Assembly (NCBI GenBank): GCA_964416205.1
Contig: CAYQDC010000001.1
Location: 7,822-71,821 of the forward strand
Direction of reading: 5' to 3'
Origin: an uncultured Acetobacter sp.
Lineage (GTDB): Bacteria > Pseudomonadota > Alphaproteobacteria > RF32 > CAG-239
Length of the DNA stretch: 64,000 nt
Below are positions 2,857 to 43,947 of the stretch, one piece after another. The notes below the pieces were generated by a model. It had not been told where the DNA came from. It did not search any database and saw nothing but the letters and a program-made list of their open reading frames with translations. Every line of letters begins with the position of its first letter. The first letter of the stretch is position 1. A program made the position numbers and the translations under genes.

Positions 2857-3513
2857 CTATTCAATACAGCAGTCAACCGCCTTGCGTACAAACATCTTCA
2901 TTTTTGCAAAAGCTGTTTGCGTTTCGTTGGTCTGTTCTACCTTGGAAGATGCAGAAACATCATTGCCGTCAGAAACTTTGGCAGATTTATCGTCGGTTTT
3001 ATCTTTAGCATCTGTATCCCTAAGCACGAGTCCTGCCGTTGTTACTTTCTCGCTAATTTTTTTTATATCGGCAACATTGTCTTCAATCCACTTGACATCG
3101 TTAACATTAAGCATATTCATATTCAGTCCCCAAAACAGGCAATAAAGATCATAAGCCTTGTTAAACATGTCATAAGCCTGTTCTTTATTGCCGAGGCTCT
3201 GTTGCTTGGTGCCAACTTCCATCAGCCGCATGGAGCTGGCCAGCAAATGCTTGGAAATGCACCACACTTCTCCTTCATAAGAAGGAATAATTTTCATCAT
3301 CAGCTTTTTGCGCGTTTCACGAATGTCTTCAATCAGATCATAAAAAGAGTTTTTGCCGGTTTTAGCACCGGAAAATACTAGATGTTCTTCAATGGAAATA
3401 AGATTCATTATAGCAATCGTTAAATCTTGGTCGGAAGACAAATCCTTCGGATTGACTTTTTTGGTTGCATCAATACGTTCTACAAATTCTTTAACGTTTT
3501 CTGCTTTTTTCAT
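2857..3513 (-). CDS. hypothetical protein (218 aa) with acidic/low-complexity C-terminus
   Basis: Long ORF, no motif recognised. Confidence 0.45.
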   Translation of the reverse strand: MKKAENVKEFVERIDATKKVNPKDLSSDQDLTIAIMNLISIEEHLVFSGAKTGKNSFYDLIEDIRETRKKLMMKIIPSYEGEVWCISKHLLASSMRLMEVGTKQQSLGNKEQAYDMFNKAYDLYCLFWGLNMNMLNVNDVKWIEDNVADIKKISEKVTTAGLVLRDTDAKDKTDDKSAKVSDGNDVSASSKVEQTNETQTAFAKMKMFVRKAVDCCIE

Positions 3514-3531
3514 CTCATTTCTCCTCTATAG

Positions 3532-4062
3532 TTATATATTACTCAAATCAGGTAATACCGGTGTACAAAGTTGCATATAGGAAAATAACCACGACAGCAA
3601 CACCAAGGAGGTCACTGGTACAAATACTTTTTCAAACGGAAAATGTGCATGTCCATCATTCTTTTTTTTCATCCATTGATAAAAATCGGAAGAATATTTC
3701 AACAGCAGCGCACCACAAATGGTTGCAAATAAAAACGGATCAATCCAGAAAATCAAGATAGGTTTCGGCATATAAACAAGATGCGAAATATAAATAAACC
3801 CGATCATAGCCACCGACAGCGTTAGCACCAGAAAATTACGTCCCTTAAATTGCCAGCTTTTCTTTTCCATCCATTTCAGCGTCCAAAAGCCGATCAGCAT
3901 TAAAAAAGCACCAGACCATACCGCGACCACACTGTCATCAACGCCAAGTCGTCGCGCAATTTCAAGTGAGGCCCCCACGGCAACCGTACAAACCGCACAT
4001 GCAGGATTTGCCAAAGCTTTCAAACTGAAAAAACAAAGCAGTAAAACTGATAAAAACAACAT
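3532..4062 (-). CDS. hypothetical integral membrane protein (176 aa)
   Basis: Several hydrophobic helices; signal-like N-terminus. Confidence 0.45.
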   Translation of the reverse strand: MLFLSVLLLCFFSLKALANPACAVCTVAVGASLEIARRLGVDDSVVAVWSGAFLMLIGFWTLKWMEKKSWQFKGRNFLVLTLSVAMIGFIYISHLVYMPKPILIFWIDPFLFATICGALLLKYSSDFYQWMKKKNDGHAHFPFEKVFVPVTSLVLLSWLFSYMQLCTPVLPDLSNI

Positions 4063-4149
4063 CTTTTCCTCAAAAAAACAATTTTAAACTAGTATCGTCG
4101 ATATATAAAGCAATGTCAAATCTTTTTTAAGGCTTATAAGCAACAAGAA

Positions 4150-5664
4150 TTATTCTTTTCTGGCTTCCGGTTGGTGTTTTCGCGACAAGTATTGCCAAAA
4201 GATGTCGCTTCGGTATTTTTTTGCAGTAAATTGATGATTGGCATCCCAGCCGAAAACCGGCATTCGCACAAAAGATTGGTTAAGCGTATGTATTTGGTCG
4301 GCAACAACATTAAGTCGTCCGAGTCGATGGGTAAAATATACGCCACGGTAAAATTCTGTTAGCGGCGTCGTCGCACCGATCAGCAATAAAATAGTCAACA
4401 GCGTCCGTCGAAACACGTTTCGATGTTCTGAAAAGCTGGTTATCAAAAAGCGGATAGCATACACACAAAGCACTATAAGCGACGGAATGGATGCGCGCAT
4501 GCAGAAATTATTTTGTTGATCCAGCCGGAAAAAGGGAATGATGCAAAGTGTCACCACGGCCATTGCAAAAAACAAATGTTTATGGTATGTAGGCGCCAGC
4601 AAAGCTGCAATTAGCAAAAATTCAAGCAACATAAAAATAAGTAGTCGCATTGGCGTTGTATAGTCAAAGATATACCAGAGCTTGTCCATCCCTTCCGAAT
4701 TGGTGATGAAATAAAGCACAAAGACCGGCAACAGCCAAAAAACACCGATAAGATTGGGAATGGAAAAAATCTCCACGACTAAAAAGCTTTTTTTGTCGCC
4801 ACTTCGCAAAAAGGTCTGCCCCGCGTAGGCAATGGTAAAAATTCCGATTCCTGCCGCCGGATAAGGAGCAAAAAACAGCGTCATCGCCACCAGAAAGCCA
4901 AAGTTCCGGATGTTTCGTTCATTATATATCAATAGCGTCACAAGTGCCACAGGAATAAATTGATTGAATACCCAAAACAGGCATGTCGTCAGCGATGAAT
5001 ATTGGATAAAAGTCGCCCACCAGTCCAAATGAAGGACAAAAGGCTGTTCCACGACTTTAAAGAAGAGAATACCGATAATATCCATGCCTGAAAAAAAGAT
5101 AAATACAATAACCGCTGATGCCAGTTTTTTCCAAGAACCAGTGCGTGTCGCCACCACCAGCAGGGCCAAAATCAATATTACTCCGGCAACGGCATAAACA
5201 TAAAGCCAGATATTTGCCAGATAAAAATTCCAATAGGCATTTTGGATAAAAGTCGCGCTGATTTTGCCAAATAATGCTGGTAATAGCCAAAAACCCATAT
5301 AATAAACTAGGGGCGTATCGGCTTTATCATAAAAAACCGGCCATGAATAATTAATAAGATCGCGAAAAACCGCATTACGAAAATGGTAGTCAAAAGATTG
5401 ATAATAAAAATAACCGATTCCAGCCAAAAAGCACCATATTGTTGCCACAACCGTTAAAAAGAATAAAAAACGCCACGGCAGTCGCCAGTTTTTATTTACC
5501 GTTTCGTCTGCAGTCGCGCAAATCTTATACAAACCAACTGTCGTCAACATAATAAGCACAAAGGCTGCGACGTAATTTAACCAGCCTGCAAAAAAAACAA
5601 TCATAGGCAGCGCCAGATAAACATAAGTGGCGCGATAAAGCGTTTTCAAACAGATACCATTCAT
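4150..5664 (-). CDS. large polytopic membrane protein (504 aa), aromatic-rich, unknown function
   Basis: About 12 or more hydrophobic segments; long ORF. Confidence 0.55.
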   Translation of the reverse strand: MNGICLKTLYRATYVYLALPMIVFFAGWLNYVAAFVLIMLTTVGLYKICATADETVNKNWRLPWRFLFFLTVVATIWCFLAGIGYFYYQSFDYHFRNAVFRDLINYSWPVFYDKADTPLVYYMGFWLLPALFGKISATFIQNAYWNFYLANIWLYVYAVAGVILILALLVVATRTGSWKKLASAVIVFIFFSGMDIIGILFFKVVEQPFVLHLDWWATFIQYSSLTTCLFWVFNQFIPVALVTLLIYNERNIRNFGFLVAMTLFFAPYPAAGIGIFTIAYAGQTFLRSGDKKSFLVVEIFSIPNLIGVFWLLPVFVLYFITNSEGMDKLWYIFDYTTPMRLLIFMLLEFLLIAALLAPTYHKHLFFAMAVVTLCIIPFFRLDQQNNFCMRASIPSLIVLCVYAIRFLITSFSEHRNVFRRTLLTILLLIGATTPLTEFYRGVYFTHRLGRLNVVADQIHTLNQSFVRMPVFGWDANHQFTAKKYRSDIFWQYLSRKHQPEARKE

Positions 5665-5806
5665 ATTTCCTCCGACATTTGCCTTTTTACCATTAAAACT
5701 GGAAACCTACGATGTCTGGGCATATATTTTCGTTTCAACAGCATCATTGGACAGGCAGTCCGGTGCATAAGAGCATCACGTTACTTGCTCATACCCATTT
5801 TAGATC

Positions 5807-6802
5807 TCAAGGCTTCTGCCTTGCATTTTTCTTTTCCTTAAAAAGCGATAGAACAATGCCACCGAAAAGCAGGGAGAACGTTACCGTCAGTGAATGCCAT
5901 GTTTCCAGCTCAAGTCCAATTTTTGGCAGAAAAATCTTCAACCCGATAAAAATCAACACAATAGACAACGCATGCTTGAGGTAGACAAAACGATGAACGG
6001 CAGCTTCCAGCAAGAAGTATAGCGCTCTAAGACCGAGAATAGCAAAAATATTGCTAGTGTAAACGATAAACACATCATCGGTCAGAAGGAAAATTGCCGG
6101 AATACTGTCCAGAGCAAAAACCACATCCATCAATTCAATTATAATCAACGCAAACAACAGCGGTGTAATATAATGTTTGCCACCTTTTTTCGTAATAAAA
6201 TGTGCCCCGTCTATTTCATGCGTTACAGGAAAATACTTTTCAACAAAACGGTAGATGGAGCTACTTTTAATATTATCTTCCGTATTTTCTTCTTTGTTGT
6301 CTTTTTTCAGGCTGTGTATGGCTATTTTGGCTCCGGTATAGATAAGGAACGCCGAAAAGATGTATAAAACCCAATGGAAGTTTTTAATCAAAACATCCCC
6401 AACACCGATGAGTAGCGCCCGCATAACAATCGCCCCCAAAATACCCCAGAACAGAACCCGATGTTGGTAAATGCGCGGCACACCAATACTGGTAAATATA
6501 ATGGACATCACGAAAATATTGTCCATGGACAAGCTTTTTTCCACCAGAAACCCAGTAAAATACTCCATTGCCTTGTTGGTACCCTCTTCATACCAGACAA
6601 AAAAACCGAACAGCAGTCCGGCACTGATATATGCTACACAGACCCATAGCGTATGAGCAAAACTTGGAACTTCGTTTTTGCGGTTAAAAACGCATAAGTC
6701 CAAAAAAAGTAAAACCATTACGGCAACACCAAAACAAACCCACATGAACTCTTGCGACAAAACAACATGGTGTATAAACAGATATTGTAATTTTTCTAAC
6801 AT
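5807..6802 (-). CDS. TerC-family integral membrane protein
   Basis: Motifs EKSLSMDNIFV and ELMDVVFALDSIPAIF typical of TerC/Alx family; start chosen at ATG 6802 (GGAAGGA RBS) to avoid overlap with galE. Confidence 0.7.
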   Translation of the reverse strand: MLEKLQYLFIHHVVLSQEFMWVCFGVAVMVLLFLDLCVFNRKNEVPSFAHTLWVCVAYISAGLLFGFFVWYEEGTNKAMEYFTGFLVEKSLSMDNIFVMSIIFTSIGVPRIYQHRVLFWGILGAIVMRALLIGVGDVLIKNFHWVLYIFSAFLIYTGAKIAIHSLKKDNKEENTEDNIKSSSIYRFVEKYFPVTHEIDGAHFITKKGGKHYITPLLFALIIIELMDVVFALDSIPAIFLLTDDVFIVYTSNIFAILGLRALYFLLEAAVHRFVYLKHALSIVLIFIGLKIFLPKIGLELETWHSLTVTFSLLFGGIVLSLFKEKKNARQKP

Positions 6803-6842
6803 TTTTTCCTTCCAAAAAGAAACCCCAATAGGTCTTCCATTT

Positions 6843-7817
6843 TTATATGCCGAACGGTTGCTCCAAATTCCATATGGTTTGAATAATTTCTTCAACATCC
6901 GTATATCTGGCCTGCCATCCGAGAAACTCTTTAGCCTGATTGGCGCTGGCTGTCAATATGGCGGGATCGCCGGCACGCCGCGGTGCATAGTCATAATTGA
7001 GCTTTTGGCCGATAACTTTTTCAGCGGCTTCAACAACCTCCCTTACGCTACTCCCCTTTCCTGTACCGAGGTTGACCGTAAAAGAAGCGTTGTCTGTGAC
7101 AAGTTTTCTGAGCGCAAGCGTATGTGCTTTTGCCAAGTCGGAAACGTGTACATAATCGCGGATACAGGTTCCGTCTGGCGTATCATAATCATTGCCGAAA
7201 ATAGAAAATTTCTCCCTTTTTCCTATAGCAACTTCCATAATAACCGGCATCAGGTTTTGAGGATTTTTTTCTTTGCCACGAATAGAACCGTCCGCTGCAT
7301 AGCCGACAGCGTTAAAATAGCGCAGGGCTGCATAATCAAGCTTTCCCAGTTGCGCATACCAGCGCATATTCTCTTCGATGATTGCTTTTGTATAACCATA
7401 ATAATTAATAGGGCAAATGGGATGCTTCTCATTAACCGGTATATACTGTGGTATACCGTAAACGGCAGCAGAAGAAGAAAAAACGATATGGCGCACACCA
7501 TAGGTCACCATCGCGTTAAGAACGTTGATAGAGCCACAGATATTATTTTCTGCATATATTTCAGGGCAGAGCATAGATTCGCCGACAGCTTTTTTTGCCG
7601 CCAGATGGACAACACCATCAATATTACGCCCCATCGCCACATTCAGTGCATCTTTGTCAAGAATGCAACCGCGGATAAATTCAGTCTTAGGCAATAAATT
7701 AATCTCAGAGCCTGTAGAAAGATCGTCAAAGACAACAACATCAAAGCCTTCTTCTAACAGTTGCTTTTGCACATGACTGCCAATATAACCGGCGCCACCG
7801 ATAACCAAAATCTTCAT
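6843..7817 (-). CDS. galE: UDP-glucose 4-epimerase
   Basis: N-terminal Rossmann MKILVIGGAGYIGSH, YxxxK region and full-length similarity pattern of GalE; start at 7817 rather than ORF-track 7898. Confidence 0.9.
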   Translation of the reverse strand: MKILVIGGAGYIGSHVQKQLLEEGFDVVVFDDLSTGSEINLLPKTEFIRGCILDKDALNVAMGRNIDGVVHLAAKKAVGESMLCPEIYAENNICGSINVLNAMVTYGVRHIVFSSSAAVYGIPQYIPVNEKHPICPINYYGYTKAIIEENMRWYAQLGKLDYAALRYFNAVGYAADGSIRGKEKNPQNLMPVIMEVAIGKREKFSIFGNDYDTPDGTCIRDYVHVSDLAKAHTLALRKLVTDNASFTVNLGTGKGSSVREVVEAAEKVIGQKLNYDYAPRRAGDPAILTASANQAKEFLGWQARYTDVEEIIQTIWNLEQPFGI

Positions 7818-7890
7818 AGATAATATCCTTAAAATACTAAAGACGATTTTGCTTAGCATGACGTCATAAAAAATAAAAGCCATTTCAGAA

Positions 7891-7949
7891 TTATCCACAT
7901 AATACGGAGTCGACGGATATTTACAGGCTTTTTATCCACATTATTCACA
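7891..7949. promoter_or_regulatory. cluster of DnaA boxes upstream of dnaB
   Basis: Two perfect TTATCCACA (7891-7899, 7932-7940) and one TTATTCACA (7941-7949). Confidence 0.5.
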
Positions 7950-8029
7950 GTGGGTTGCCTTTGTTCGTGCATTTTTGCAAAGATTGTTTCATAACCCAAA
8001 GAAAAGATAGGAAAGGATTCTGATAAAAG

Positions 8030-9502
8030 ATGGAAGAACTGGACATAACGCAATTACCACGCAATATAGAAGCCGAACAGGCTTTAATCGGTGCATTGCT
8101 GGCAAACAACAGGGCTTATGAAAAAATATCTGACTTTTTACGGCCAGAGCATTTTTCTGATCCGATTCATGCCCAAGTTTATGAAGTGATGACCAATTTG
8201 ATCGTCCGCGGGCGTGTCGCCGACGTTATTACGCTGAAAAATTATTTCGAACAGAACGGAACCCTTAACGATGTTGGTGGCATTGCCTATTTGGTAAAAT
8301 TGTCAGAAGCCTCGTCGCCGTTGACAAATATTGAATATTACGCCCGTTTTATATACGATAAGTATCTGCGTCGCGAGTTGATTTCTACCGGCTACGATAT
8401 CGCCAGCGAAGCGATGAGTGAAAATCTGGAAGAAAGTACGACTCAGCAGATTGAAAACGCTGAAAAGCGCTTGTTCAATCTAGCCATGCACGGTGACGGG
8501 CAAAAAGGCTTTCAAGATTTCGGAACAACTTTAAGAGCAACGTTGGAACAAATAGAAAAATCATATCAGAAGGAAGGACGCATTTCCGGATTGCCGACCG
8601 GTTTGGATGAATTGGATCTCCGCACCGGCGGTTTAAACAATTCCGACTTGATTATTCTGGCCGGTCGTCCAGCAATGGGTAAGTCCGCCCTGGCAATGAA
8701 CATTGCTTATAATGTAGCGGAATATATGTCCCAAAATACCGGGATAGAGCCGCAAGATAAAGGCGTTGCGATCTTTTCGTTGGAAATGTCGGCTGAGCAG
8801 CTGGCGGCGCGTATTCTTTCCAGTATCACCGAAACCCCGGGCAATAAGCTGCGTAACGGTAATTTGGAAATGGAGGAATTTCAGCGCATTATCGGTGCTG
8901 TAAATGAATATCAAAAGCTACCACTGTATATAGATGATACACCGGGAATCAATATTAATACGATTCGCACCCGTGCTCGCCGTCTGAAAAGAACCAACGG
9001 CCTGGGGCTGATTATCATTGATTACATCCAACTGATAAGCGGTTCTAGCGATAAGAAGAGTGAAGGTAACCGCGTGCAGGAAGTATCTGAAATTTCCCGC
9101 GGGCTTAAGATTTTAGCCAAAGAGCTGGGGGTTCCAGTCATTGCCTTGTCACAGTTAAACCGCGGCCTTGAACAACGTGATGACAAGCGCCCATTGATGT
9201 CTGACTTGCGCGAGTCTGGATCTATTGAACAGGATGCAGATATCGTCATGTTTGTTTTTCGTGAAAATTATTATATTCACAATGCTGAGCCGAAACAAAA
9301 CATGGGAGAAACAGACGAGCACTTTATCAAGCGCACCGAAGAGTGGCAGAAAAAAGATCGAGAAACGGAGCATCTGGGTGAAGTGATTATTGGCAAACAT
9401 CGACACGGTTCCACTGGAACAGTCAAGCTGTTTTGGGATGCTGCATATGCCCGTTTCAGCAATCTAGCACCAGAAGATCACCTGCCAGAACAACGAGGAT
9501 AA
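8030..9502 (+). CDS. dnaB: replicative DNA helicase
   Basis: N-terminal DnaB domain (PRNIEAEQALIGALL), Walker A GRPAMGKSA, Walker B IIIDYIQL, 490 aa. Confidence 0.95.
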   Translation: MEELDITQLPRNIEAEQALIGALLANNRAYEKISDFLRPEHFSDPIHAQVYEVMTNLIVRGRVADVITLKNYFEQNGTLNDVGGIAYLVKLSEASSPLTNIEYYARFIYDKYLRRELISTGYDIASEAMSENLEESTTQQIENAEKRLFNLAMHGDGQKGFQDFGTTLRATLEQIEKSYQKEGRISGLPTGLDELDLRTGGLNNSDLIILAGRPAMGKSALAMNIAYNVAEYMSQNTGIEPQDKGVAIFSLEMSAEQLAARILSSITETPGNKLRNGNLEMEEFQRIIGAVNEYQKLPLYIDDTPGININTIRTRARRLKRTNGLGLIIIDYIQLISGSSDKKSEGNRVQEVSEISRGLKILAKELGVPVIALSQLNRGLEQRDDKRPLMSDLRESGSIEQDADIVMFVFRENYYIHNAEPKQNMGETDEHFIKRTEEWQKKDRETEHLGEVIIGKHRHGSTGTVKLFWDAAYARFSNLAPEDHLPEQRG

Positions 9503-18974: not shown

Positions 18975-20471
18975 ATGACTCGGAGCTTATTTTTATGGGT
19001 ATATGCCACCTTAAATCTTGTTTTTCTATACTATCAAGGAACCTTTTTTATTGGCAATCATGACTGGGACTGGGTCAAAGGTACCACACAAGTTTTAAAC
19101 TTGGGTACTGGGCTTTTTGAGGGGCGTTACAGCAAATTCATTCTCAATACTGTGCTTTTTGGTGGTCAAATCATGCCTTTACTGAATACTTGGTTGGCAT
19201 TTGCATTGTTGGCCTTTGGGGCAAGCCTGTTACCGCATTACTGGCAGATAAAAGGACGAACAGCACAGACAATGGTGGCATTACTGCCGGCATTGCTACC
19301 ATTTGTTCTTGGCTGGCTTTATTTTCCGATAAACATTTTGGGCAATTTTATGGCAGTACCGGCAGTCATCGGCGGATTGATACTGGTTGAAAGAAAAGAG
19401 AAGGTAGCCATCATCACCGGTATGTTGTGTTTTTTACTGGCTCTGGGTGTATATCCGAGCGTTGTGGAAACGATGATCGTTTGCTGGGCTGTACGCTGTC
19501 TGCTGGCCTCAGCCGATGAGAGGAGAAAACAGGGGCAAGCACTGGTATGCATAATTGTCAGCCTTATTATATTCGCCATATTATTAAAAATTTTAAAAGC
19601 AGCCAGTATTGTTTATGCCGATCATTACAATATGCAGACGGCGTCGTTATGGGAGATGTTTGTCCGCCTGCCAGCTATGTCTGTTTTGATTTTGGAGCAA
19701 TTGGCGGACAGTGTGCCTTTTCAGCCATCATCTTTAAAAATATGCGGTTTGATATTGATAGTGGCGGCATTTATCTGTTCCCTGCAGCATGCGGTGTCTG
19801 TCATCAAAGTATTGTTGTTGTGGAGCATTGCTCTCGGTGCAACAGTATTAAGCGCCTGGGTAGCTGTCGTTTCAGATGAAGTAGCCTATATGCCACGGAT
19901 AAATTTCTACGGGTTGAATTTTATTTATGCCGGTGCTGCGGCCATATTATGGTCTTCCGACAAAAATATATGGAAAAATATAGCATTTGTTGTCGGCAGT
20001 ATTATGCTGTTTCTGGCCGTCAATGCCGATGTGGCGGCTCAAAAAGTGTGGCAAGCCGGAAAAATTGCGGAAGAAAGGCTAGTGGAACGCATTTCATCAC
20101 GGTTGGATGAACAAGGTGCCATCCGTTGGGAAACAGGGTTACGAACGCCGTGGATACCTGTTATTGCTGGCGAATTGCCACTGCGCCCGCGTTATTATGG
20201 TCGTCCGTATGAACATTCAGGATCCTATGTACTGAATGCTTCATTTATCGTTCGCCATATCCCGTCCGGTATGTTTAATTTTTATGCAGCCAGTCCTGTT
20301 TTTGCCGGATTGTCGCAAATAAGGGAAATAACGCCGGCGATGCGTGCCTTTTTGACACAGGACGGTCGTCCATGGCCAGCGGTATCTTCCGTATTTTTGG
20401 ATGAAAACTATGCTATTGTTTTACTAACTGTAGAAGGATTGGCAGCAATCAGAAATCAAATGCCGCAATAA
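18975..20471 (+). CDS. large polytopic membrane protein (498 aa), unknown function
   Basis: More than 10 hydrophobic helices; follows the GT-C-like gene in same orientation. Confidence 0.5.
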   Translation: MTRSLFLWVYATLNLVFLYYQGTFFIGNHDWDWVKGTTQVLNLGTGLFEGRYSKFILNTVLFGGQIMPLLNTWLAFALLAFGASLLPHYWQIKGRTAQTMVALLPALLPFVLGWLYFPINILGNFMAVPAVIGGLILVERKEKVAIITGMLCFLLALGVYPSVVETMIVCWAVRCLLASADERRKQGQALVCIIVSLIIFAILLKILKAASIVYADHYNMQTASLWEMFVRLPAMSVLILEQLADSVPFQPSSLKICGLILIVAAFICSLQHAVSVIKVLLLWSIALGATVLSAWVAVVSDEVAYMPRINFYGLNFIYAGAAAILWSSDKNIWKNIAFVVGSIMLFLAVNADVAAQKVWQAGKIAEERLVERISSRLDEQGAIRWETGLRTPWIPVIAGELPLRPRYYGRPYEHSGSYVLNASFIVRHIPSGMFNFYAASPVFAGLSQIREITPAMRAFLTQDGRPWPAVSSVFLDENYAIVLLTVEGLAAIRNQMPQ

Positions 20472-27335: not shown

Positions 27336-27384
27336 TGGTAGGCGCGCAGGGATTCGAACCCTGGACCCACTGATTAAGAGTGAT
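27336..27384 (-). tRNA. partial tRNA-like 3' half (T-arm + acceptor 3' strand + ACCA); putative prophage att core
   Basis: Reverse strand reads ...TCACTCTTAATCAGTGG GTC CAGGGTTCGAATCCCTG CGCGCCT A CCA; no matching D-arm or 5' acceptor strand upstream, so fragment only. Confidence 0.45.
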
Positions 27385-27458: not shown

Positions 27459-28082
27459 TTAGACCGCGTCCTTTATCTGCTTTGCTGACGCGTCAGAAAA
27501 ATGTGTTTTGATATATCTGTCCAGCGTCCCCCAGCAACAATTCGTCAGGCGGGCAATTTGTTTTTTGGAAACGCCTTCATCAAGAAGTTTTTTTATTTCA
27601 TCGTGACGTTCTTTTAGTTTGGAATGCGTAAATCCAAATGGTCTGCCAAGGTGTCTGCCCTCATCTTTAAGCCGTTGCAGAGAATTTTTAGTACGTTCCG
27701 AGATAAGCTGGCGTTCAATTTCACTGGCCAGAGAAAAGGCAAAAGCAAGGACTTTAGATTGAATATCCGCTCCCAGGCGGTAATTTTCTTTCAATGTCCA
27801 CACCTGACATTCTCTTTGCAGGCAAGTCTGCAAAATCCCCATAACCTCAAGCATATTCCTGCCAAGACGAGATATTTCCGTTGCAATCAGAGTATCACCT
27901 TTTTTCAGACGTTTTAACACTCTGTTTAGTTTTCTGTCCTGTAGTTTTTTACGAGAAGAAATCACTTCTTCTGCCCATTTATCAATAACAATATTATTCC
28001 GTTTAGCAAAGAGTTCTATTTCGTGACGCTGGTTAGCGCAGGTTTGCTGTTCGGTACTTACCCTAATATATCCATAAATCAT
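27459..28082 (-). CDS. serine recombinase (resolvase/invertase family)
   Basis: MIYGYIRVSTEQQ catalytic Ser region, resolvase core and C-terminal HTH; 207 aa. Confidence 0.85.
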   Translation of the reverse strand: MIYGYIRVSTEQQTCANQRHEIELFAKRNNIVIDKWAEEVISSRKKLQDRKLNRVLKRLKKGDTLIATEISRLGRNMLEVMGILQTCLQRECQVWTLKENYRLGADIQSKVLAFAFSLASEIERQLISERTKNSLQRLKDEGRHLGRPFGFTHSKLKERHDEIKKLLDEGVSKKQIARLTNCCWGTLDRYIKTHFSDASAKQIKDAV

Positions 28083-28085
28083 TTC

Positions 28086-29174
28086 TTATCCTTGTTTAAA
28101 AACATCATCCATAACCGAGATAACCCTGTTATTAAATGGATGGGCGTATTTAAGCGTTGTTTTGATATTTGAGTGCGCCAGCGAGTCTTTGACCAGGCGC
28201 AAATCTCCGGTAGAATTATATATCCATGTAGCGTGCGTATGGCGCAGGGTATGAATGGTATAATGTGGAAGTCCGGCGCGTTTAAGCGCATTGTTCCACG
28301 CTTTATTTATCCTTTTTACCGGCATTCCCTTATAGGTAAATATATAATCAGAGTTATGGGGCAGGGTATCAAGTAATTCCTTTAAGACCGGAAAAATGGG
28401 TTTGCGCTGCATTTTTCCACCCTCAAATTTACAGTCTTTTACTCTGATGATAATTTCATCGCCGACAATATCCGTCCATTTCAGATTTAAGATAGTTGAG
28501 ATTCTTAAGCCGGTATAAATAGCGGTTAAGATTATCGGCTTAATGTGCGGGGCGGAATTATCAACGATTTTGTTTACGGTTTGCCAGTCCGCAAAGTATT
28601 TCACATTTTCCGCCGGTTCTTTACGCATAAATTGCCTGATGTTAATATCCGGCAAATTTATTTTATGTAACCGGCAACGTGAAAAAACAGCCGACAACAA
28701 AGCCAGATAGCGGTTGATAGTGGCGTTTTTTCTGTTTTCAGCGTCTTTTGCCCTTATAAAAGCGGTAATATCCTCAACAGTTAAATTTGATATATATTGT
28801 TGCGAATTAAAGTAAGATATTAAGTTTTTCAGTTTATTAAAAGTATCTTTGGCATTGGCGTGCAATTTACCCACTTCGTCCCAGAATAAACCAAAAGCAT
28901 AATCTACAGTTACCTCTTTTAGTTGAGCTGTTTTGAATCTCGCTTGCTCGATAATGTCCTGAAGTCTTTGGTTTGCATATTGCAAAGCCTGATTGCGGTC
29001 TGTTGTGTGAGAGCTTTCGCGAATGAAAACTCTTTGTCCGCTGACGATGGTTGAAATCGTGATATGGTAGATTTTTCCCCTTTTAACGAGCTTGACAGGG
29101 GCTTTGTTGTATTTTGCAGACATTGTTCTACACTCCATTGGGGAATTAAGTATGTTGTACCGGATTGAATACAC
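28086..29174 (-). CDS. int: tyrosine integrase (phage integrase family)
   Basis: C-terminal catalytic region HTLRHTHATW...LAHSNIKTTLKYAH (R..HxxR..Y); N-terminal SAM-like domain; true start may be internal Met (~29123). Confidence 0.9.
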   Translation of the reverse strand: MYSIRYNILNSPMECRTMSAKYNKAPVKLVKRGKIYHITISTIVSGQRVFIRESSHTTDRNQALQYANQRLQDIIEQARFKTAQLKEVTVDYAFGLFWDEVGKLHANAKDTFNKLKNLISYFNSQQYISNLTVEDITAFIRAKDAENRKNATINRYLALLSAVFSRCRLHKINLPDINIRQFMRKEPAENVKYFADWQTVNKIVDNSAPHIKPIILTAIYTGLRISTILNLKWTDIVGDEIIIRVKDCKFEGGKMQRKPIFPVLKELLDTLPHNSDYIFTYKGMPVKRINKAWNNALKRAGLPHYTIHTLRHTHATWIYNSTGDLRLVKDSLAHSNIKTTLKYAHPFNNRVISVMDDVFKQG

Positions 29175-35993: not shown

Positions 35994-36770
35994 ATGAGTA
36001 AAACATATTTTTCAATTTATGCCGATAAATTCGCACTTATGAAAAGCCAGCTTTCCGCTGATGAAATTATAGAAATGTTGCAGGCTTTATCTGAATTATG
36101 TATGTGGGAAGAAACGGATTATGTCCCGCAAACAAAAAAACAAAGCTATTTTTGGGAATTGCTGAAATCTAAATTTGATGATGACGAAGAACTATACAAC
36201 CAACGCTCCAGAGCAGGGAAAGAGGGGGCTAAAAAACGGTGGGATAGCAAAGCGGATAGCAAAAGCGATGGCAAAACGGATAGCAAAACGTATGGCAAAA
36301 GTGATGGCAAAACGTATGGCAAAACGGATAGCCAAATAACAAACAACAAACAACAAGATATACTTTCTTCGGATAAATCCTCAGAAAGTATTATTATCTC
36401 CCCCAAAAACGAAAAAAAACCAAAAAATTATCCTGCTGAGTTTGAGCAGTTCTGGCAGGAATATCCGCGCAAGGTGGACAAGGAGGAGGCCTACAAGAAG
36501 TTTCGCACGATTATGCTCCAAAAACGCGCCACCCTTGATGAGCTTATTGCCGGGGCAAAGCGCTATTTTGACGAGGTTTTGCAGAAAAAAACCGACACGC
36601 AGTACATCAAACACGCGTCTACGTGGCTGAACAACCTGTGCTGGCTAAACGAATACCAGGAAGACCCGCCCCGGGCAAAATCATTTTTTGACACGCCGGA
36701 AGGTAAGGAATGGTTACGAAAAGCCGAAGAGGAAGAACGAAATGCGCAAAATGGAAATACCTGCTTTTGA
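35994..36770 (+). CDS. replication initiator (lambda O-like architecture) with internal iterons
   Basis: 258 aa; internal 4-aa repeat stretch DSKA/DSKS/DGKT... encoded by 12-bp tandem repeats followed by AT-rich tract. Confidence 0.5.
   Translation: MSKTYFSIYADKFALMKSQLSADEIIEMLQALSELCMWEETDYVPQTKKQSYFWELLKSKFDDDEELYNQRSRAGKEGAKKRWDSKADSKSDGKTDSKTYGKSDGKTYGKTDSQITNNKQQDILSSDKSSESIIISPKNEKKPKNYPAEFEQFWQEYPRKVDKEEAYKKFRTIMLQKRATLDELIAGAKRYFDEVLQKKTDTQYIKHASTWLNNLCWLNEYQEDPPRAKSFFDTPEGKEWLRKAEEEERNAQNGNTCF
36243..36340. repeat. eight tandem 12-bp repeats (GATRGCAAAASG), candidate ori iterons
   Basis: ggatagcaaagc/ggatagcaaaagc/gatggcaaaacg/gatagcaaaacg/tatggcaaaagt/gatggcaaaacg/tatggcaaaacg/gatagccaaata, then A/T-rich 36335-36440. 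Confidence 0.5.
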
Positions 36771-37278: not shown

Positions 37279-37519
37279 GCCTGTGCAATCGGAAAAACCG
37301 GTGATTGATGTCAAAACACTGGAGGTTTGGAAGTCGCGGGCAGAGTGCGCTAGATGTTTAGGGGTCACCACTGCCAGAATAACGCAGTGTATTGAATACG
37401 GCAATAGAGTCAGAGGGCGCAGACTGGAAGATTTTAACTATTGGCAGGGGCTAGACTGGCGCGACAAGGAAAAAATGTCGCAGAGCAACTTTTATTTTTT
37501 TGACAAGGAGGTAATATGA
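37271..37519 (+). CDS. small HTH DNA-binding protein
   Basis: AECARCLGVTTARITQCIEYGN HTH-like. Confidence 0.4.
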   Translation: MRRPVQSEKPVIDVKTLEVWKSRAECARCLGVTTARITQCIEYGNRVRGRRLEDFNYWQGLDWRDKEKMSQSNFYFFDKEVI

Positions 37520-38061
37520 ACACTAAAGCCTCGTACTATCCATTTTTCAAAGACGTTTGTATAAAATTTAATTGTTCTGTTGAGGATTTGGAAACTCCCA
37601 AACGAGGACACCGCTATGTACAGGCAAAGAGGGTTTGTTGCCGGTTTTTACGGCTTTTAGGGTATTCATTCCCCCGCATCAGCCGGATACTGGATAAAGA
37701 CCATACTTCGGTTATCAACGCCTGTAAACGGTGCGCGTCCGATCCTGATCTGGAAGAATACGCAACGGAGCTGTGTTTGCGCTATATACAGACCAACCCC
37801 GATGATAAATTGATTAAAAAGGAAACATTTAAGCGAAAAATTGAACACGAAAAGATTATTACTCTGTTTAATCAGGGCGCTGGTGTTGACAGGATAGCAG
37901 CAGCGATTGATAACACCGTTGAATACGTCAGAGTGCAGTTGGAATATATCAGAAAAATTTATGAAATAAAAAAAATCCCGGACTATAAGGCCAATAAAAC
38001 CCGGGAGATTATTAACGTAAACAAGCGGGGGAAATATGGGGAAAAAAAGAACACAGCTTGA
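37516..38061 (+). CDS. DnaA C-terminal (domain IV)-like DNA-binding protein
   Basis: KRGHRYVQAKRVCCRFLRLLGYSFPRISRILDKDHTSVINACKR matches the Bac_DnaA_C signature. Confidence 0.6.
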   Translation: MNTKASYYPFFKDVCIKFNCSVEDLETPKRGHRYVQAKRVCCRFLRLLGYSFPRISRILDKDHTSVINACKRCASDPDLEEYATELCLRYIQTNPDDKLIKKETFKRKIEHEKIITLFNQGAGVDRIAAAIDNTVEYVRVQLEYIRKIYEIKKIPDYKANKTREIINVNKRGKYGEKKNTA

Positions 38062-38539
38062 GAAGTATTACGCCAAAGGGTGGCTGGTGTGGGGCGATAC
38101 GCGTATCACTTCCGAAGACAGGCTGGAAGCCGGCAAAAGATTTTACAACCTCTATCTGGCCTGCCGGTTTGATTCGCCAGTGCCAGATGTTACCAAACCC
38201 CGGGTTGACCGCACGCCAACATACACCGTTTCAGAAAATATTCAGACTGCCCGCGAAAAATATACCCGGGCAATTAAGCGGTTAAAATATACCGCCGAGG
38301 GCAGGGAGCGGATAATCCGCCACGTCATAATTGATAACAGAGCTTGCCCGGTGCAGTTTGTAACCCGCCAGCAATACGAACACGATTTGCTTTTATTCAA
38401 ACATTATCTGAGCCGGGGGCTGGACGATTTGTTTTACTTTTTCGGTGGCCGGCTGACCAAAACCAAAAGCCGTAATTATTCCAATATGCCGTATTTCTGG
38501 GCCAACATGGGTCGCTACTTTGACGAATGCGGAAAATGA
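38036..38539 (+). CDS. hypothetical phage protein (167 aa)
   Basis: ORF overlapping previous stop. Confidence 0.4.
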   Translation: MGKKRTQLEKYYAKGWLVWGDTRITSEDRLEAGKRFYNLYLACRFDSPVPDVTKPRVDRTPTYTVSENIQTAREKYTRAIKRLKYTAEGRERIIRHVIIDNRACPVQFVTRQQYEHDLLLFKHYLSRGLDDLFYFFGGRLTKTKSRNYSNMPYFWANMGRYFDECGK

Positions 38540-38676
38540 AAAAACATGCAAATTAAACTTACTTTAAATATTGCTGTATTAACTTCTTTATAAGATGAAG
38601 ATGTTGCTATTGACAACAGTACTTTTTATGTTACTGATATTAACAGAATATTAACTTTTCATTTAAGGTATGGACA

Positions 38677-39432
38677 ATGTTTTTTGATAATATAGATGCC
38701 TCATTGTTACCCGTAAAAATAAAAAGCAGTAATTTGTTAAGTGCGATTATTGAGCTTCGTTTTGACAGGGTATTGCCAGTTGAAGAGGTTGTCTGGCCTT
38801 TATATGTGAAAATGAAAGATACTTTTAATTCTCCGCAGAAATCTCCAGTATATGACATACCAAAAGAAGAGCGAATGCGGGATTTAAATTTGCAAAATGC
38901 AATTCTTTTTGTGTTGGAAAGCAAGGATAAAATGTATCAGATAGGCTGTGGCGAAGGAATTGTAACAATAAGTTTAGGTAATTTTAATTATGGAAAATGG
39001 AAAGATTTTTATACGGAATTTGAAAAAATATTTAATGAAATCAGTGAGAGCATAACACAGATAAATCGAGTAGGGCTTCGTTATATCAATGTATTTGATG
39101 ACGGTAATTTGGATAGTTTTAAAATAGAGTTGCTTTTGAATAAAGAGACATTAAAAAAAGTTCCTTTAAGATTAAATTTTGAGTTTGAACTAGACAACAG
39201 GATTGTTAAGTTAAATTTATTAAATAAAGCACAGTATAAATTTAATTCTGAAAATCGTATGAATGCGGTTGTTTTGGATATTGATGTTATTCATAATCAA
39301 CAGGTGGAAAAAGATAATATACAGAAAATTATTGAAGACAGTCATTCAGTAGTAAAAAAGACATTTTTTGGCATTTGCTGTGATGATTTTATTCAACAGA
39401 TATTATGTCCCTGTAAAGAGGAGGATAATTAA
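38677..39432 (+). CDS. uncharacterised protein A of AT-rich three-gene cassette (251 aa)
   Basis: AT-rich codon usage distinct from flanking phage genes; RBS AAGGTATGG; stop abuts next ATG. Confidence 0.5.
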   Translation: MFFDNIDASLLPVKIKSSNLLSAIIELRFDRVLPVEEVVWPLYVKMKDTFNSPQKSPVYDIPKEERMRDLNLQNAILFVLESKDKMYQIGCGEGIVTISLGNFNYGKWKDFYTEFEKIFNEISESITQINRVGLRYINVFDDGNLDSFKIELLLNKETLKKVPLRLNFEFELDNRIVKLNLLNKAQYKFNSENRMNAVVLDIDVIHNQQVEKDNIQKIIEDSHSVVKKTFFGICCDDFIQQILCPCKEEDN

Positions 39433-39948
39433 ATGTCGGATATATGTTGTGATTTGGGCGTTCCTTATTCTGAAGGTATATTGCCATCTATACAAATACC
39501 GTATATTAACCTGACGTCTTTAAATTTATCTGAACATAAAGCAATCGCAGATAATGAAGTTGATATAAATTCATACGATGCTGATGTGCGTAATTTTATA
39601 CAGCTTTTTAATGAAAAGGGTGGCGTAAACGGGGAATATTTTTCAAGACGCTTAGTGGAAATTTATGCAGATGAACCGGATTTACCTTTTGATGTAATAA
39701 CTTTTAGAGGATTATTAAATTTTGCTGAAAATAGGTTGTTTGAAACAATGTATAACATAGCTTTAGGCATTGATGACAAAGGGCGTCCCATGTTGCAGCA
39801 GAATTTTGCGAATAGCTTTATTTATGTTAAGTTTTTGACCGGCGAACGGGTTAAATATCATTTAGTATATCAAAACAGAGATATTATGAATGAAGGTACT
39901 TTCAATGAATTTTATAAAGATTATACGTCGTGTCCAGTTTTTAGCTAA
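39433..39948 (+). CDS. uncharacterised protein B of cassette (171 aa)
   Basis: ATG immediately after stop of A (TAA 39430-39432). Confidence 0.5.
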   Translation: MSDICCDLGVPYSEGILPSIQIPYINLTSLNLSEHKAIADNEVDINSYDADVRNFIQLFNEKGGVNGEYFSRRLVEIYADEPDLPFDVITFRGLLNFAENRLFETMYNIALGIDDKGRPMLQQNFANSFIYVKFLTGERVKYHLVYQNRDIMNEGTFNEFYKDYTSCPVFS

Positions 39949-40366
39949 CTTTAAGCGATTAAAAGATAAGCATAATGTATTCAGATATTGTAAACCCAGT
40001 GTATGCAGCAAAGAGCGGAAAGTTATCTTTAAAGATGCGTTTGTATTGAGAGAAGAAAGGAACGAAGATTATTTATCTTGTCAATGGGCGGAATTTTATC
40101 CCGGACATCCGGAAAAGGCTAAAGATGAATTAGGGTTGACACCTAAAAAAAATGGTTTTGTGGCAAAAATGAATGTCGGTAAAATTTGCTTTTATGGAGA
40201 AAAATATCATCTTGATAATGTATATGTTACCCGCCTGAGGATGGGAACATCGTATTCTGGAATTTTTAATACATCTAATGATAATGACAGATTTTTGGAA
40301 GCTTTATCAAATGATGCAACGGAAGAATACAGAAATTACTTAAAAGAGCAGGAAAGAGGTTTTTGA
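39905..40366 (+). CDS. uncharacterised protein C of cassette (~153 aa); may be frameshifted continuation of B
   Basis: Overlaps B 3' end in a different frame (B in frame 1, C in frame 2). Confidence 0.4.
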   Translation: MNFIKIIRRVQFLANFKRLKDKHNVFRYCKPSVCSKERKVIFKDAFVLREERNEDYLSCQWAEFYPGHPEKAKDELGLTPKKNGFVAKMNVGKICFYGEKYHLDNVYVTRLRMGTSYSGIFNTSNDNDRFLEALSNDATEEYRNYLKEQERGF

Positions 40367-40395: not shown

Positions 40396-40788
40396 TTATA
40401 AATCAGTGTTTACCGCGTCCGTATCCTTTTTCAAATCAGCTATCAACTCGTCCACCGTGTCAAAATGACCAAAAACGCGCCCTGCTTTTATGTCGGCTTC
40501 TACATTAGCCATTGCCTGCGCAATAAACTCTTCTTCTGTATTTAATACACATTTCCCGTTATGCCATATCTCACTGGAATCAATATCTGTGTCATCTGTC
40601 CAGGTTATACCATAACCACCACAATCAATCCTGCCTTTGGCAAACAGCCCCGGAATATCCTTTAACGGTTTAAATGCTTCGTATTTATCAAACAGCGGTT
40701 TCATATCATACAGTTTTTGCACGCCACTTACAAATTCGGCTTTTATGATAAAATCCGGCAAAAAGTTTATTTTCTTTATTTTAAACAT
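40396..40788 (-). CDS. DUF2442-like protein with C-terminal extension
   Basis: N-terminal pattern KI..V.....L...F.nG......L.PL.........F..V.V.--I.W.-...D...-..W resembling DUF2442; AGGAGG RBS before ATG 40788. Confidence 0.55.
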   Translation of the reverse strand: MFKIKKINFLPDFIIKAEFVSGVQKLYDMKPLFDKYEAFKPLKDIPGLFAKGRIDCGGYGITWTDDTDIDSSEIWHNGKCVLNTEEEFIAQAMANVEADIKAGRVFGHFDTVDELIADLKKDTDAVNTDL

Positions 40789-40799
40789 CGTCGGCCTCC

Positions 40800-41054
40800 T
40801 TATGTAAGCGGTGGCAATACCTTGAATTGTTGCGATTGCCACATTTCCAGCAATTCTTTTTTATGAATCTCCATCCACTCGATAACCATTGCAGCAGCCC
40901 TTGCTGGCAAATCCCCCTCAAGCATTTTCAGGCTTTGAATATCAAACAGGGCGCTGTATTCTCCGTAAATAACATGCACGTGTGGCGGATTATGCTCCGC
41001 CCCCAACAGAAACATTTTTATCACTATTCCATAAAATCGCGCAATCACCGGCAT
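40800..41054 (-). CDS. DUF4160-like protein
   Basis: EHNPPHVHVIYGEYSALFDIQ...LPARAAAMVIEWMEIHKKELLEMW matches DUF4160 signature; AAGGAG RBS; 11 nt upstream of DUF2442 gene. Confidence 0.6.
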   Translation of the reverse strand: MPVIARFYGIVIKMFLLGAEHNPPHVHVIYGEYSALFDIQSLKMLEGDLPARAAAMVIEWMEIHKKELLEMWQSQQFKVLPPLT

Positions 41055-41342: not shown

Positions 41343-41789
41343 ATGGACACGATAGAACTGTATTTGCGCGGGCTTTCAGACAAACCCCAAAAGCCCTTAA
41401 CAACTATGGAGATGTATTTACAGGGAGTTAAAATCGAACCGCCAAAGCCTCGTACGGTTATTGAATGTTATTTAGCTGGCGTCGCCTGTGACGAGTGGCA
41501 GGAAGAAGACCACCCGCGCGATGATGACGGTAAATTCAGCAAAGTCAGAGGAAAAAACGCAAAATCGGTTGCCAAAAACGCCGGAAAGTGTAAAATAAAA
41601 AGACGACGCCGGATTGTCAGATTATCCGAAAAAGAGTTCGCCGAAGTTCAGAGCGCTTTTATGACTGATGTTACTAAGGAACAACGAAAGCAAAGTGTTT
41701 TGAAAAAATACATCGGCAATTATATTTACACCGGGATTTTGCGTGAAGACGGCACCAGAGATATTGTTAAAAGGATAAAAATAAAATGA
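41343..41789 (+). CDS. 'HPRD' module protein copy 1: N-terminal ELYLRG/KP.KP repeats, DHPRDDDGKF linker, basic C-terminal domain
   Basis: Paralogous to 59725..60240 and to the C-terminus of the portal 43951..45762. Confidence 0.5.
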   Translation: MDTIELYLRGLSDKPQKPLTTMEMYLQGVKIEPPKPRTVIECYLAGVACDEWQEEDHPRDDDGKFSKVRGKNAKSVAKNAGKCKIKRRRRIVRLSEKEFAEVQSAFMTDVTKEQRKQSVLKKYIGNYIYTGILREDGTRDIVKRIKIK

Positions 41790-42726: not shown

Positions 42727-43947
42727 ATGGCGGGATTATCAAAATTGATAGCACCGCCGTTTTATGCAATTCATTTAGATATTAAGAACGGCGGACATAC
42801 TGAATACTGGCTAAAAGGAGGCCGTGCGTCCACAAAGTCAAGTTTTATCAGTATTGAAATAATCTTAACGCTGATAAAATCACCGGGAACGCACGCCGTT
42901 TGCTACCGTAAAGTCGGCAACCGTCTGGAAACCTCGGTATATAACCAGATTAAATGGGCGGTGAGTGCCTTGGGTTTAATGCCTTATTTCAGGTTTTACA
43001 AAAACCCCCTCAAGGCCGAATATACCTTAACCGGGCAACACATCCTTTTCTTAGGCCTGGACGATCCGGAAAACTCGCGTTCGATTAAACTGCCGTTTGG
43101 TTACATCAAACAACTGTGGTTTGAAGAGCTGACCCAATATGACGGTATGACGGAAATCCGCAACGTTATGCAGTCCGTTATCCGTGGCGGTGATGATTGT
43201 CTGATTTATTATTCCTACAATCCGCCGATAGAGCCGAACAACTGGGTAAATATTGAAGCCAAAACCGACAACCCGGCGCGCCTTGTTCATCACTCTACTT
43301 ACGAGGGCGTCCCGGCCGAGTGGCTGGGCAAGTCCTTTTTTGTTGGTGTTGAACACTTAAAAAAGACCAACGAAAGAGCCTACCGCCACGAATACTTAGG
43401 TGAAGAAGTCGGCACCGGCTTATCGGTATTCACTAACATAGAATCCCGGATATTGCCGGAAGAAGAAACCCGACATTTTGACAATATATGTGAGGGTATC
43501 GACTGGGGCTATTCTGTTGACCCGTTTGTGTGGCTTAAAATGCACTATGACCGCAAACGCCAGACCGTTTACATTTACGAAGAGATTTATCAGGTTGGCC
43601 TGTCCAACCGGGAATCTATAGATCTTGTCAGAGCCGTCCACGATGACGACGCGATAATCATTGCCGATTCTGCCGAGCCAAAGTCTATATGGGAGTTTGC
43701 CGACGCTGGTCTGCCTGTTGAGCGAGCCGAAAAGGGCGCTGGTTCAGTCAGATTCGGCATAAAGAAGTTACAGGGTTTGGAAAAAATCGTCATCGACCCG
43801 CACAGATGCCCAAACGCCCTGCGGGAGTTTACCGGCTATGCTTACGAGGTGGACAAACAGGGCAACCCCAAAGCCAGTTATCCTGATAAGGACAATCACT
43901 GTATCGACTGCGCCCGCTATGCGCTGGAACAACAATTTGAGTATTAG
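42727..43947 (+). CDS. terminase large subunit (PBSX/Terminase_3-like)
   Basis: N-terminal ATPase (GGRASTKS Walker A-like), C-terminal nuclease with acidic residues; 406 aa. Confidence 0.8.
   Translation: MAGLSKLIAPPFYAIHLDIKNGGHTEYWLKGGRASTKSSFISIEIILTLIKSPGTHAVCYRKVGNRLETSVYNQIKWAVSALGLMPYFRFYKNPLKAEYTLTGQHILFLGLDDPENSRSIKLPFGYIKQLWFEELTQYDGMTEIRNVMQSVIRGGDDCLIYYSYNPPIEPNNWVNIEAKTDNPARLVHHSTYEGVPAEWLGKSFFVGVEHLKKTNERAYRHEYLGEEVGTGLSVFTNIESRILPEEETRHFDNICEGIDWGYSVDPFVWLKMHYDRKRQTVYIYEEIYQVGLSNRESIDLVRAVHDDDAIIIADSAEPKSIWEFADAGLPVERAEKGAGSVRFGIKKLQGLEKIVIDPHRCPNALREFTGYAYEVDKQGNPKASYPDKDNHCIDCARYALEQQFEY

Follow-up and report, generated by a model that had tools for sequence, protein, structure and literature searches.

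The omega-epsilon-zeta system is a tripartite toxin-antitoxin (TA) operon in which omega is a ribbon-helix-helix repressor. Among anti-phage systems, the toxin RnlA binds its substrate through TATA-binding protein (TBP)-like domains (PMC8266594; PMC3710099), PDC-M32 was reported as an uncharacterised candidate in a Sinorhizobium prophage (PMC12429752), and the P2 hotspot of Escherichia coli holds a system of three genes without a predicted domain (Rousset et al. 2022, PMC9122126). Here we describe a cassette of three genes, A, B and C, in a prophage within a 64-kb stretch of contig CAYQDC010000001.1 from an uncultured Acetobacter sp.; the window denotes this whole stretch of 64,000 nucleotides (nt). 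Judged by sequence comparison, the cassette belongs to a widespread but uncharacterised family of operons, of which it is a divergent and AT-rich representative and which consist, in this order, of the genes for a TIGR04255 protein, a second protein and a small C-family protein. The three genes may form a tripartite TA or abortive-infection-like conflict module carried as mobile prophage cargo, a reading that we consider probable, if narrowly so.

38677-39432, forward strand: gene A, 251 amino acids (aa)
39433-39948, forward strand: gene B, 171 aa
39905-40366, forward strand: gene C, 153 aa, in the +1 frame relative to B

The cassette resembles omega-epsilon-zeta operons in its three small, coupled, co-directional genes, which follow the order accessory or regulatory, acidic and basic protein, in a conserved operator-like element upstream, and through a related Vibrio operon in which TIGR04255 comes first and an annotated zeta toxin last. 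It differs in that A is a 251-aa protein modelled with a TBP-like fold rather than a ribbon-helix-helix repressor, and in that no similarity could be detected between B or C and epsilon, zeta or the toxin and antitoxin families of Pfam, NCBIfam and PADLOC. With RnlA-RnlB and LsoA-LsoB it shares a duplicated TBP-like module, a putative effector and a putative small neutralising partner on mobile DNA, but the TBP-like module is a separate gene in the cassette, the structural matches listed for the A model did not include RnlA, and the C family lacks the conserved HEPN motif Rx4-6H. C was considered as an RnlA-like HEPN ribonuclease toxin and rejected, as no such R...H pair was conserved across our alignment of the C family (A4). 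The C-terminal domain of the second gene in two distant relatives weakly matched the candidate PDC-M32A in PADLOC (E 7e-5 and 0.014), whereas B had no PDC-M32A match, PDC-M32A spans 375 positions and belongs to a two-gene system, and the PADLOC models matched none of the TIGR04255 or C-family components. The three-gene system of Rousset et al., compared by description only, is likewise a prophage-hotspot trio of hypothetical proteins; identity with it is unsupported, since no PADLOC model matched the cassette and a megablast query with it hit none of 50,697 phage records and none of 5,426 complete E. coli genomes. Overall, we predict a logic of a known kind built from components that are new with respect to PADLOC v2, the sequences of the Rousset system lying outside this comparison.

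The coordinates of the open reading frames (ORFs) bore out the layout given in an earlier reading of the same letters (the original prediction), in which A and B abut and C overlaps B in another frame. The ATG of B immediately follows the TAA stop of A, with a GGAGG motif 8 nt before it. Two candidate ATGs for C, at 39905 (153 aa) and 39890 (158 aa), both lead to the same end at 40366; the ATG at 39905 is the likely start, as it is kept in all relatives and lies 8 nt after a Shine-Dalgarno-like GAAGG motif.

The original prediction had recognised no catalytic or DNA-binding motif by eye in any of the three genes; A, however, is recognisable. Its product matched the TIGR04255 hidden Markov model (HMM) of NCBIfam at 92.4 bits (curated cutoff 30; E 3.8e-26), with residues 16-241 aligned to profile positions 3-250 of 252, a full-length match. 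A also matched phrog_5464, a PHROG without known function, and the literature searched for TIGR04255, CHP04255 or IPR026349 yielded no publication. The protein is acidic (isoelectric point (pI) 5.1), and a search of PDB sequences with it returned noise only. An AlphaFold2 (AF2) model of A (predicted local distance difference test score (pLDDT) 69; predicted template modelling score (pTM) 0.70) contained two beta-alpha-beta(3-4)-alpha repeats, and Foldseek placed TBPs at the top of the PDB matches (E 1.7e-4) and TBP-like proteins at the top of the viral library, so that A is modelled as having a TBP-like duplicated fold. Positions conserved across the TIGR04255 family were mostly aromatic or hydrophobic, that is, structural rather than catalytic, and the charged residues that alternate on the strands in the A subfamily were not kept across TIGR04255 subgroups. 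On these grounds, A seems to us more likely to bind a partner or act as a scaffold than to be an enzyme, and from the model we propose that it may be a nucleic-acid-binding sensor or regulator.

C also turned out to belong to a recognisable, if unnamed, family. The protein is basic (pI 9.2 in the window, 9.2–9.5 overall) and seemed as rare as B in a word-indexed search; when 1.84 billion representatives were scanned in full with HMMER, 67 of them proved to be related to it at E ≤ 1e-3. All 67 are stand-alone proteins of ~120–170 aa whose alignment begins at C residue ~17–22, and they share the motif H-[VI]-x-R-Y ... A-F-x-L-R ... E-x-Y-L-S-x-x-W-x-E ... S-[YH]-S-G-I, with R27, S58 and E63 invariant in alignment A4. 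The 10 remote relatives examined belonged to no Pfam or NCBIfam family, and neither phages nor plasmids yielded a tblastn match to C.

A search of metagenome contigs, with the alignment of the remote C homologues alone as query, returned at least 215 confirmed loci, 80 of which were fetched and 51 of which had enough upstream DNA for analysis. In these 51 loci the C homologue was the third gene of a same-strand trio (genes of ~270, 220–280 and 145 aa). Gene 1 fell into one phmmer group, together with TIGR04255, in 46 of the 51 trios; three tested proteins of this main group matched TIGR04255 at E 1e-21 to 1e-23, and gene 1 of locus L028 did so at E 1e-35. Four other loci (L098, L037, L041 and L055) had an unrelated gene 1 of 219–243 aa with no TIGR04255 match, followed by genes 2 and 3 homologous to those of the main type, so that the first component, too, can be exchanged. 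Profile comparison with hhalign joined the window-type C to the metagenomic gene 3 at 98.5% probability (E 1.7e-15). The gene-2 family has a conserved C-terminal domain (...SL.NF..FL...P.ISLTPD.NIYASW...F.V.FL..G..RFVIF), and its sequence and profile searches against PDB gave noise only. The window cassette has the same composition, with a TIGR04255 gene 1, a C-family gene 3 and same-strand coupling through a 44-nt overlap. Thus, the trio architecture and the coupling of genes 2 and 3 are conserved over great sequence distance.

The trios had heterogeneous neighbours, with 114 Pfam families in 107 neighbour proteins, and on this account the trio behaves as a self-contained insert. The same variety bears on the idea that the trio serves a non-conflict cellular function, for example as a small regulatory or nucleic-acid-processing complex of sporadic distribution that phages sometimes acquire. 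Such a function would fit the overwhelmingly metabolic and housekeeping nature of the metagenomic neighbours, the structural rather than catalytic conservation in A and the lack of a recognised toxin family for C, but the neighbours are never the same, TIGR04255 has its partners swapped for unrelated pairs (including an annotated zeta toxin), and the cassette moves between unrelated mobile elements with its own predicted promoter. We consider a non-conflict function improbable.

Translation of B and C is probably coupled through the overlap of the two genes:

39905-39948, forward strand: B/C overlap, 44 nt, coding in both frames

The original prediction had left room for an alternative in which B and C are one gene of ~320 aa with a frameshift. 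Such a gene would be either split by a sequencing error or translated across a programmed frameshift. An overlap of 44 nt is unusually long, and the first ~17–20 residues of C, including the stretch encoded by the overlap, have no counterpart in the remote C homologues, both of which would suit a single gene. Set against this, all five variants of the cassette, which were assembled independently, share an identical 44-nt, +1-frame overlap with a conserved ATG and the Shine-Dalgarno-like motif. The overlap is the most conserved DNA of B and C (82% invariant columns, vs 40–55% elsewhere), which is what dual coding predicts, and the remote C homologues stand alone. Genes 2 and 3 form separate ORFs in every distant trio, with an overlap of 4–40 nt in 50 of 51 cases, and both frame offsets occur (41 vs 10), which rules out a single frameshifted gene. 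We therefore regard a frameshifted B-C gene as exceedingly improbable, and the overlap is best explained as a device for translational coupling.

B itself is acidic (pI 4.5) and is represented by just 2 clusters among 5.8 billion proteins, with no significant relatives beyond its own subfamily; a search of PDB sequences returned noise only. From its charge and its coupling to C, we propose B as a candidate antitoxin or adaptor, and C as a candidate effector or toxin.

The cassette is a discrete, horizontally exchanged unit that consists of a promoter element and three genes. Its parts, and the copies found outside the window prophage, were as follows:

38610-38627, forward strand: 18-nt cis element TTGACAACAGTACTTTTT with TTGACA (-35-like hexamer and flank), conserved across cassette copies
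38639-38655, forward strand: two direct ATTAAC repeats, 11 nt apart (GTTAAC twice in copy L001)
38610-40355, forward strand: transferable unit of promoter element, A, B and C, as delimited by nucleotide identity to other copies
Copies L001/L002: unrelated phage contig, in which a 2057-aa ART-PolyVal protein precedes the cassette and tail and lysis genes follow it
Copies L004-L009: integrase/HTH_17/AAA_25 islands adjoining clpB
Copies L010-L015: islands of similar type at another chromosomal site, followed by other cargo
Copies L018-23: short contigs

Outside the window prophage, the cassette thus occurred in four other element contexts, which include a different phage as well as integrase islands inserted at two or more sites. 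Nucleotide identity between the window and the unrelated phage contig L001 was 88% over exactly 38610-40355, beginning precisely at the 18-nt element, and identity to the island copies L004 and L010 was ~65% over 38563-40355; the flanks were unrelated in each case. The 18-nt element (given as TTGACAAYARTACTTTTT) sits 64–68 nt upstream of the A start (~67 nt in the window) and shows little or no variation among the window, L001, L004 and L010, despite A proteins that are just 50% identical. Among the fetched loci, 13 carried the element, each exactly once, and every one of them belongs to the A-B-C subfamily; it was absent elsewhere. The original prediction had described the region upstream of A as promoter-like; nothing in 38540-38676 stood out in a generic scan for promoters and terminators, and this part of the claim now stands on the conserved TTGACA-containing element, which is probably the cassette's own promoter or operator. 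The ATTAAC repeats are a possible operator.

The ends of the L004 island are 49–52-nt tRNA-derived direct repeats (5182-5233 and 20292-20340) that carry the same tRNA 3' half as the window (27337-27381), which makes this tRNA a shared integration site. Directly upstream of the cassette copy in L001, a 2057-aa ORF (2941-9114) has a weak match to ART-PolyVal; large ORFs of this type are typical of phage or plasmid polyvalent proteins. The two island types share a conserved non-coding stretch of ~350 nt 3' of gene C (L004 10472-10828; L010 11702-12037), which is present in neither the window nor L001. GC-rich hairpins (CCCCGA...TCGGGG; GACCGCCTT...AAGGTGG ahead of a T-run) lie within this stretch, and it could be a structured RNA or a terminator region. 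Large helicase-type cargo lies downstream of the cassette in both islands (L004 13886-19447; L010 12038-15924), as one 1853-aa DUF4011/AAA_11-12/MTES_1575/GreA_GreB protein in L004 and split into genes of 958 and 329 aa in L010; these genes may be further defence-like cargo.

In the window, the cassette lies in the following setting:

27337-27381, reverse strand: tRNA 3' half (acceptor and T-arm), 45 nt, where ARAGORN found no complete tRNA
27459-28082: resolvase-like gene, beside the tRNA half
28086-29174: tyrosine integrase gene, beside the tRNA half
37516-38061: gene with a DnaA_C-type helix-turn-helix (HTH), upstream of the cassette, fitting a replication module
40396-40842, reverse strand: DUF2442 gene (Pfam), 148 aa
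40800-41054, reverse strand: DUF4160 gene (Pfam), 84 aa, overlapping the DUF2442 gene
42727-43947: large terminase gene, downstream of the cassette, fitting a packaging module

The tRNA half, a remnant of an attachment (att) site beside the integrase gene, supports an integrated element and marks its left end in the window. The placement of the cassette between replication and packaging modules, as originally predicted, fits the HTH gene on one side and the large terminase on the other. The further comparison with the lambdoid nin/Q position is a loose analogy only, since the terminase resembles Clostridium-type siphovirus terminases. Two distantly related viral contigs carried unrelated genes between their homologues of the window genes 38036-38539 and 41343-41789, and none of these slot genes was A-, B- or C-like. 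The content of the slot thus differs between related phages, as expected from the proposal of accessory cargo, and from these two relatives the cassette is supported as foreign accessory cargo in a variable slot. The DUF2442/DUF4160 pair, whose assignment and convergent orientation relative to the cassette were upheld by Pfam, occupies the slot together with it and is missing beside every other cassette copy, which marks it as cargo in its own right. A 258-aa ORF (35994-36770) that contains the low-complexity repeat SKADSKSDGKTDSKTYGKSDGKTYGKTDS lies in the replication-module region of the prophage.

Base composition also set the cassette apart from its neighbours, and the strong AT-richness noted by eye was upheld by calculation. 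Its GC content was 31.5%, vs 45.6% for the remaining prophage, and composition was therefore not uniform. Across all 1.69-kb segments of the window (mean 42.8%, sd 4.0), the cassette was the fourth lowest of 1247, and the minimum itself starts at 38551. Cassette GC was below that of the flanks in most contexts compared. Among the wider trios, L028 (3602-5459 of IMGVR_UViG_3300006893_000278) holds a TIGR04255/gene 2/C-like trio between the head-morphogenesis genes of a high-GC viral contig, with a GC of 55% vs 65% in the flanks. Scans of the cassette for Rfam families, tRNAs and repeats gave no match.

That the cassette shares the orientation of the replication and packaging genes on either side of it could also mean that it serves the phage, in anti-defence, host takeover or regulation of the lytic cycle; the L001 copy behind a giant ART-PolyVal protein and the L028 trio among head genes would be compatible with this. 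Yet the cassette or trio also occurs in non-phage islands and at many chromosomal loci without phage genes, related phages lack it in this slot, and no PHROG of known function matches. A phage-serving module is thus, in our estimate, also improbable.

TIGR04255 proteins were also found ahead of other partner genes:

Phage Dobby (P2-like, Pseudomonas): TIGR04255, then proteins of ~110 and ~200 aa, convergent with the portal gene
Phage VW-6S: TIGR04255 and a ~200-aa partner, directly 3' of the cI repressor gene
Bdellovibrionota genome: TIGR04255, then proteins of ~110 and ~200 aa, chromosomal
Sulfurimonas phage SNW-1: TIGR04255, then genes of 111 and 129 aa, after a thermonuclease gene
Vibrio parahaemolyticus plasmid CP063527.1 (L112, 158-2105): TIGR04255, an acidic 179-aa ORF and an annotated zeta toxin, with a 4-nt overlap
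Crinalium plasmid: TIGR04255, then genes of 182 and 171 aa, between an HNH gene and a DNA methyltransferase gene
Thermus plasmid: TIGR04255 and one 147-aa gene, between VapBC/methylase genes and cas6

TIGR04255 is thus the shared first gene of polymorphic small operons, several of which lie in prophage cargo or plasmid positions near defence or TA genes. The ~200-aa partners in Dobby, VW-6S and the Bdellovibrionota genome are mutually homologous, and the Dobby-, Bdellovibrionota- and Sulfurimonas-type partner sets have no detectable relation to B or C. The proteins of these distant TIGR04255 operons had no PADLOC match, and their partners matched neither PADLOC nor Pfam. An acidic second and a basic third gene recurred, with pI values of 4.5/9.2 in the window, 4.8/9.6 in Vibrio, 5.2/8.8 in Crinalium and 4.6/8.3 in Sulfurimonas. 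The annotated zeta-toxin gene of Vibrio carries the Walker A motif GCNGAGKST. The position of the Dobby operon beside the portal gene is one that we take to be the P2 defence hotspot.

These contexts bear on whether the cassette is purely an addiction module that stabilises the prophage or island through post-segregational killing, with no role against other phages. Its architecture, acid/base pair and coupling are those of classical TA operons, many copies of the trio are chromosomal and lie among housekeeping genes, the variant annotated as zeta toxin in its record is on a plasmid, and VapBC adjoins relatives. Against this, classic cargo positions with expression during lysogeny, such as those after cI and beside the P2-like portal gene (presumably the P2 hotspot), as well as satellite-like islands beside a large helicase-nuclease gene, are more typical of exclusion systems. 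Addiction and exclusion are not mutually exclusive, and we judge a role in addiction alone to be unlikely.

For the conflict module that we favour, the mechanism would be as follows. The cassette would be transcribed from its own conserved TTGACA-containing promoter or operator. C, which is basic and has invariant Arg, Ser and Glu residues, would be the effector or toxin, and B, which is acidic and would be translated in lock-step with C via the 44-nt overlap, would bind and neutralise it. A, with its modelled TBP-like fold, may act as a nucleic-acid-binding regulator or infection sensor that sets the expression or release of C, a part that may be likened to that of omega in omega-epsilon-zeta operons or of the TBP-like domains in RnlA. 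The benefit would be the exclusion of superinfecting phage, the retention of the element, or both. The individual roles of A, B and C in this scheme are tentative, and we would not be surprised to see any of them reassigned.

Several results weigh against a conflict module of this kind. The original prediction had named a PADLOC scan as a check on defence cargo, and with PADLOC-DB v2.0.0, which systems named after 2023 may escape, A, B and C matched no family at E ≤ 1. Neither B nor C had a match in Pfam, NCBIfam or PHROGs. Searches of PDB sequences with C and with the C family returned noise only and gave no catalytic family for C, and the AF2 model of C, built from a 3-sequence alignment, was unusable (pLDDT 42). 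For A, whole-chain TM-scores of the model against TBP were low (0.25–0.33) and model confidence was just moderate. The alignment of B to the gene-2 family was colinear and not significant (hhalign E 0.017, probability 2.7%; best hmmsearch E 0.0017 in one direction and 0.028 in reverse). The gene-3 proteins of the main metagenomic clade have a median pI of 5.4 and are thus not basic. Neighbours of the trios were mostly housekeeping genes, and only 4 of 107 were defence-like (SLFN helicase, EVE), which gives no support for enrichment in defence islands. Finally, the zeta-toxin label in Vibrio is the record's own annotation and was unconfirmed against PDB sequences.

A broader proposal takes TIGR04255 as a stand-alone TBP-like nucleic-acid sensor or regulator that plugs into interchangeable antitoxin-toxin pairs (C family, zeta, Dobby- and Sulfurimonas-type). 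These operons would then make up a large superfamily, so far unrecognised, of tripartite systems for anti-phage defence or abortive infection that are disseminated by prophages, satellites and plasmids, with C as a new toxin fold or activity. We put this forward as a possibility that we ourselves doubt more than we believe.

If true, these readings would provide a function for TIGR04255, a 'sporadically distributed' family for which we found no published role. They would define a new and widespread family of modular three-gene conflict systems, with a TBP-like first component and effector pairs that are swapped between lineages, of which one search pattern alone recovered at least 215 metagenomic loci and whose copy in the window takes up 1.75 kb, a compact unit that includes a predicted promoter. 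The catalogue of prophage-borne immunity and TA systems would thereby be extended by a sensor or regulator logic of a new type and, in the C family, by at least one new group of effectors.

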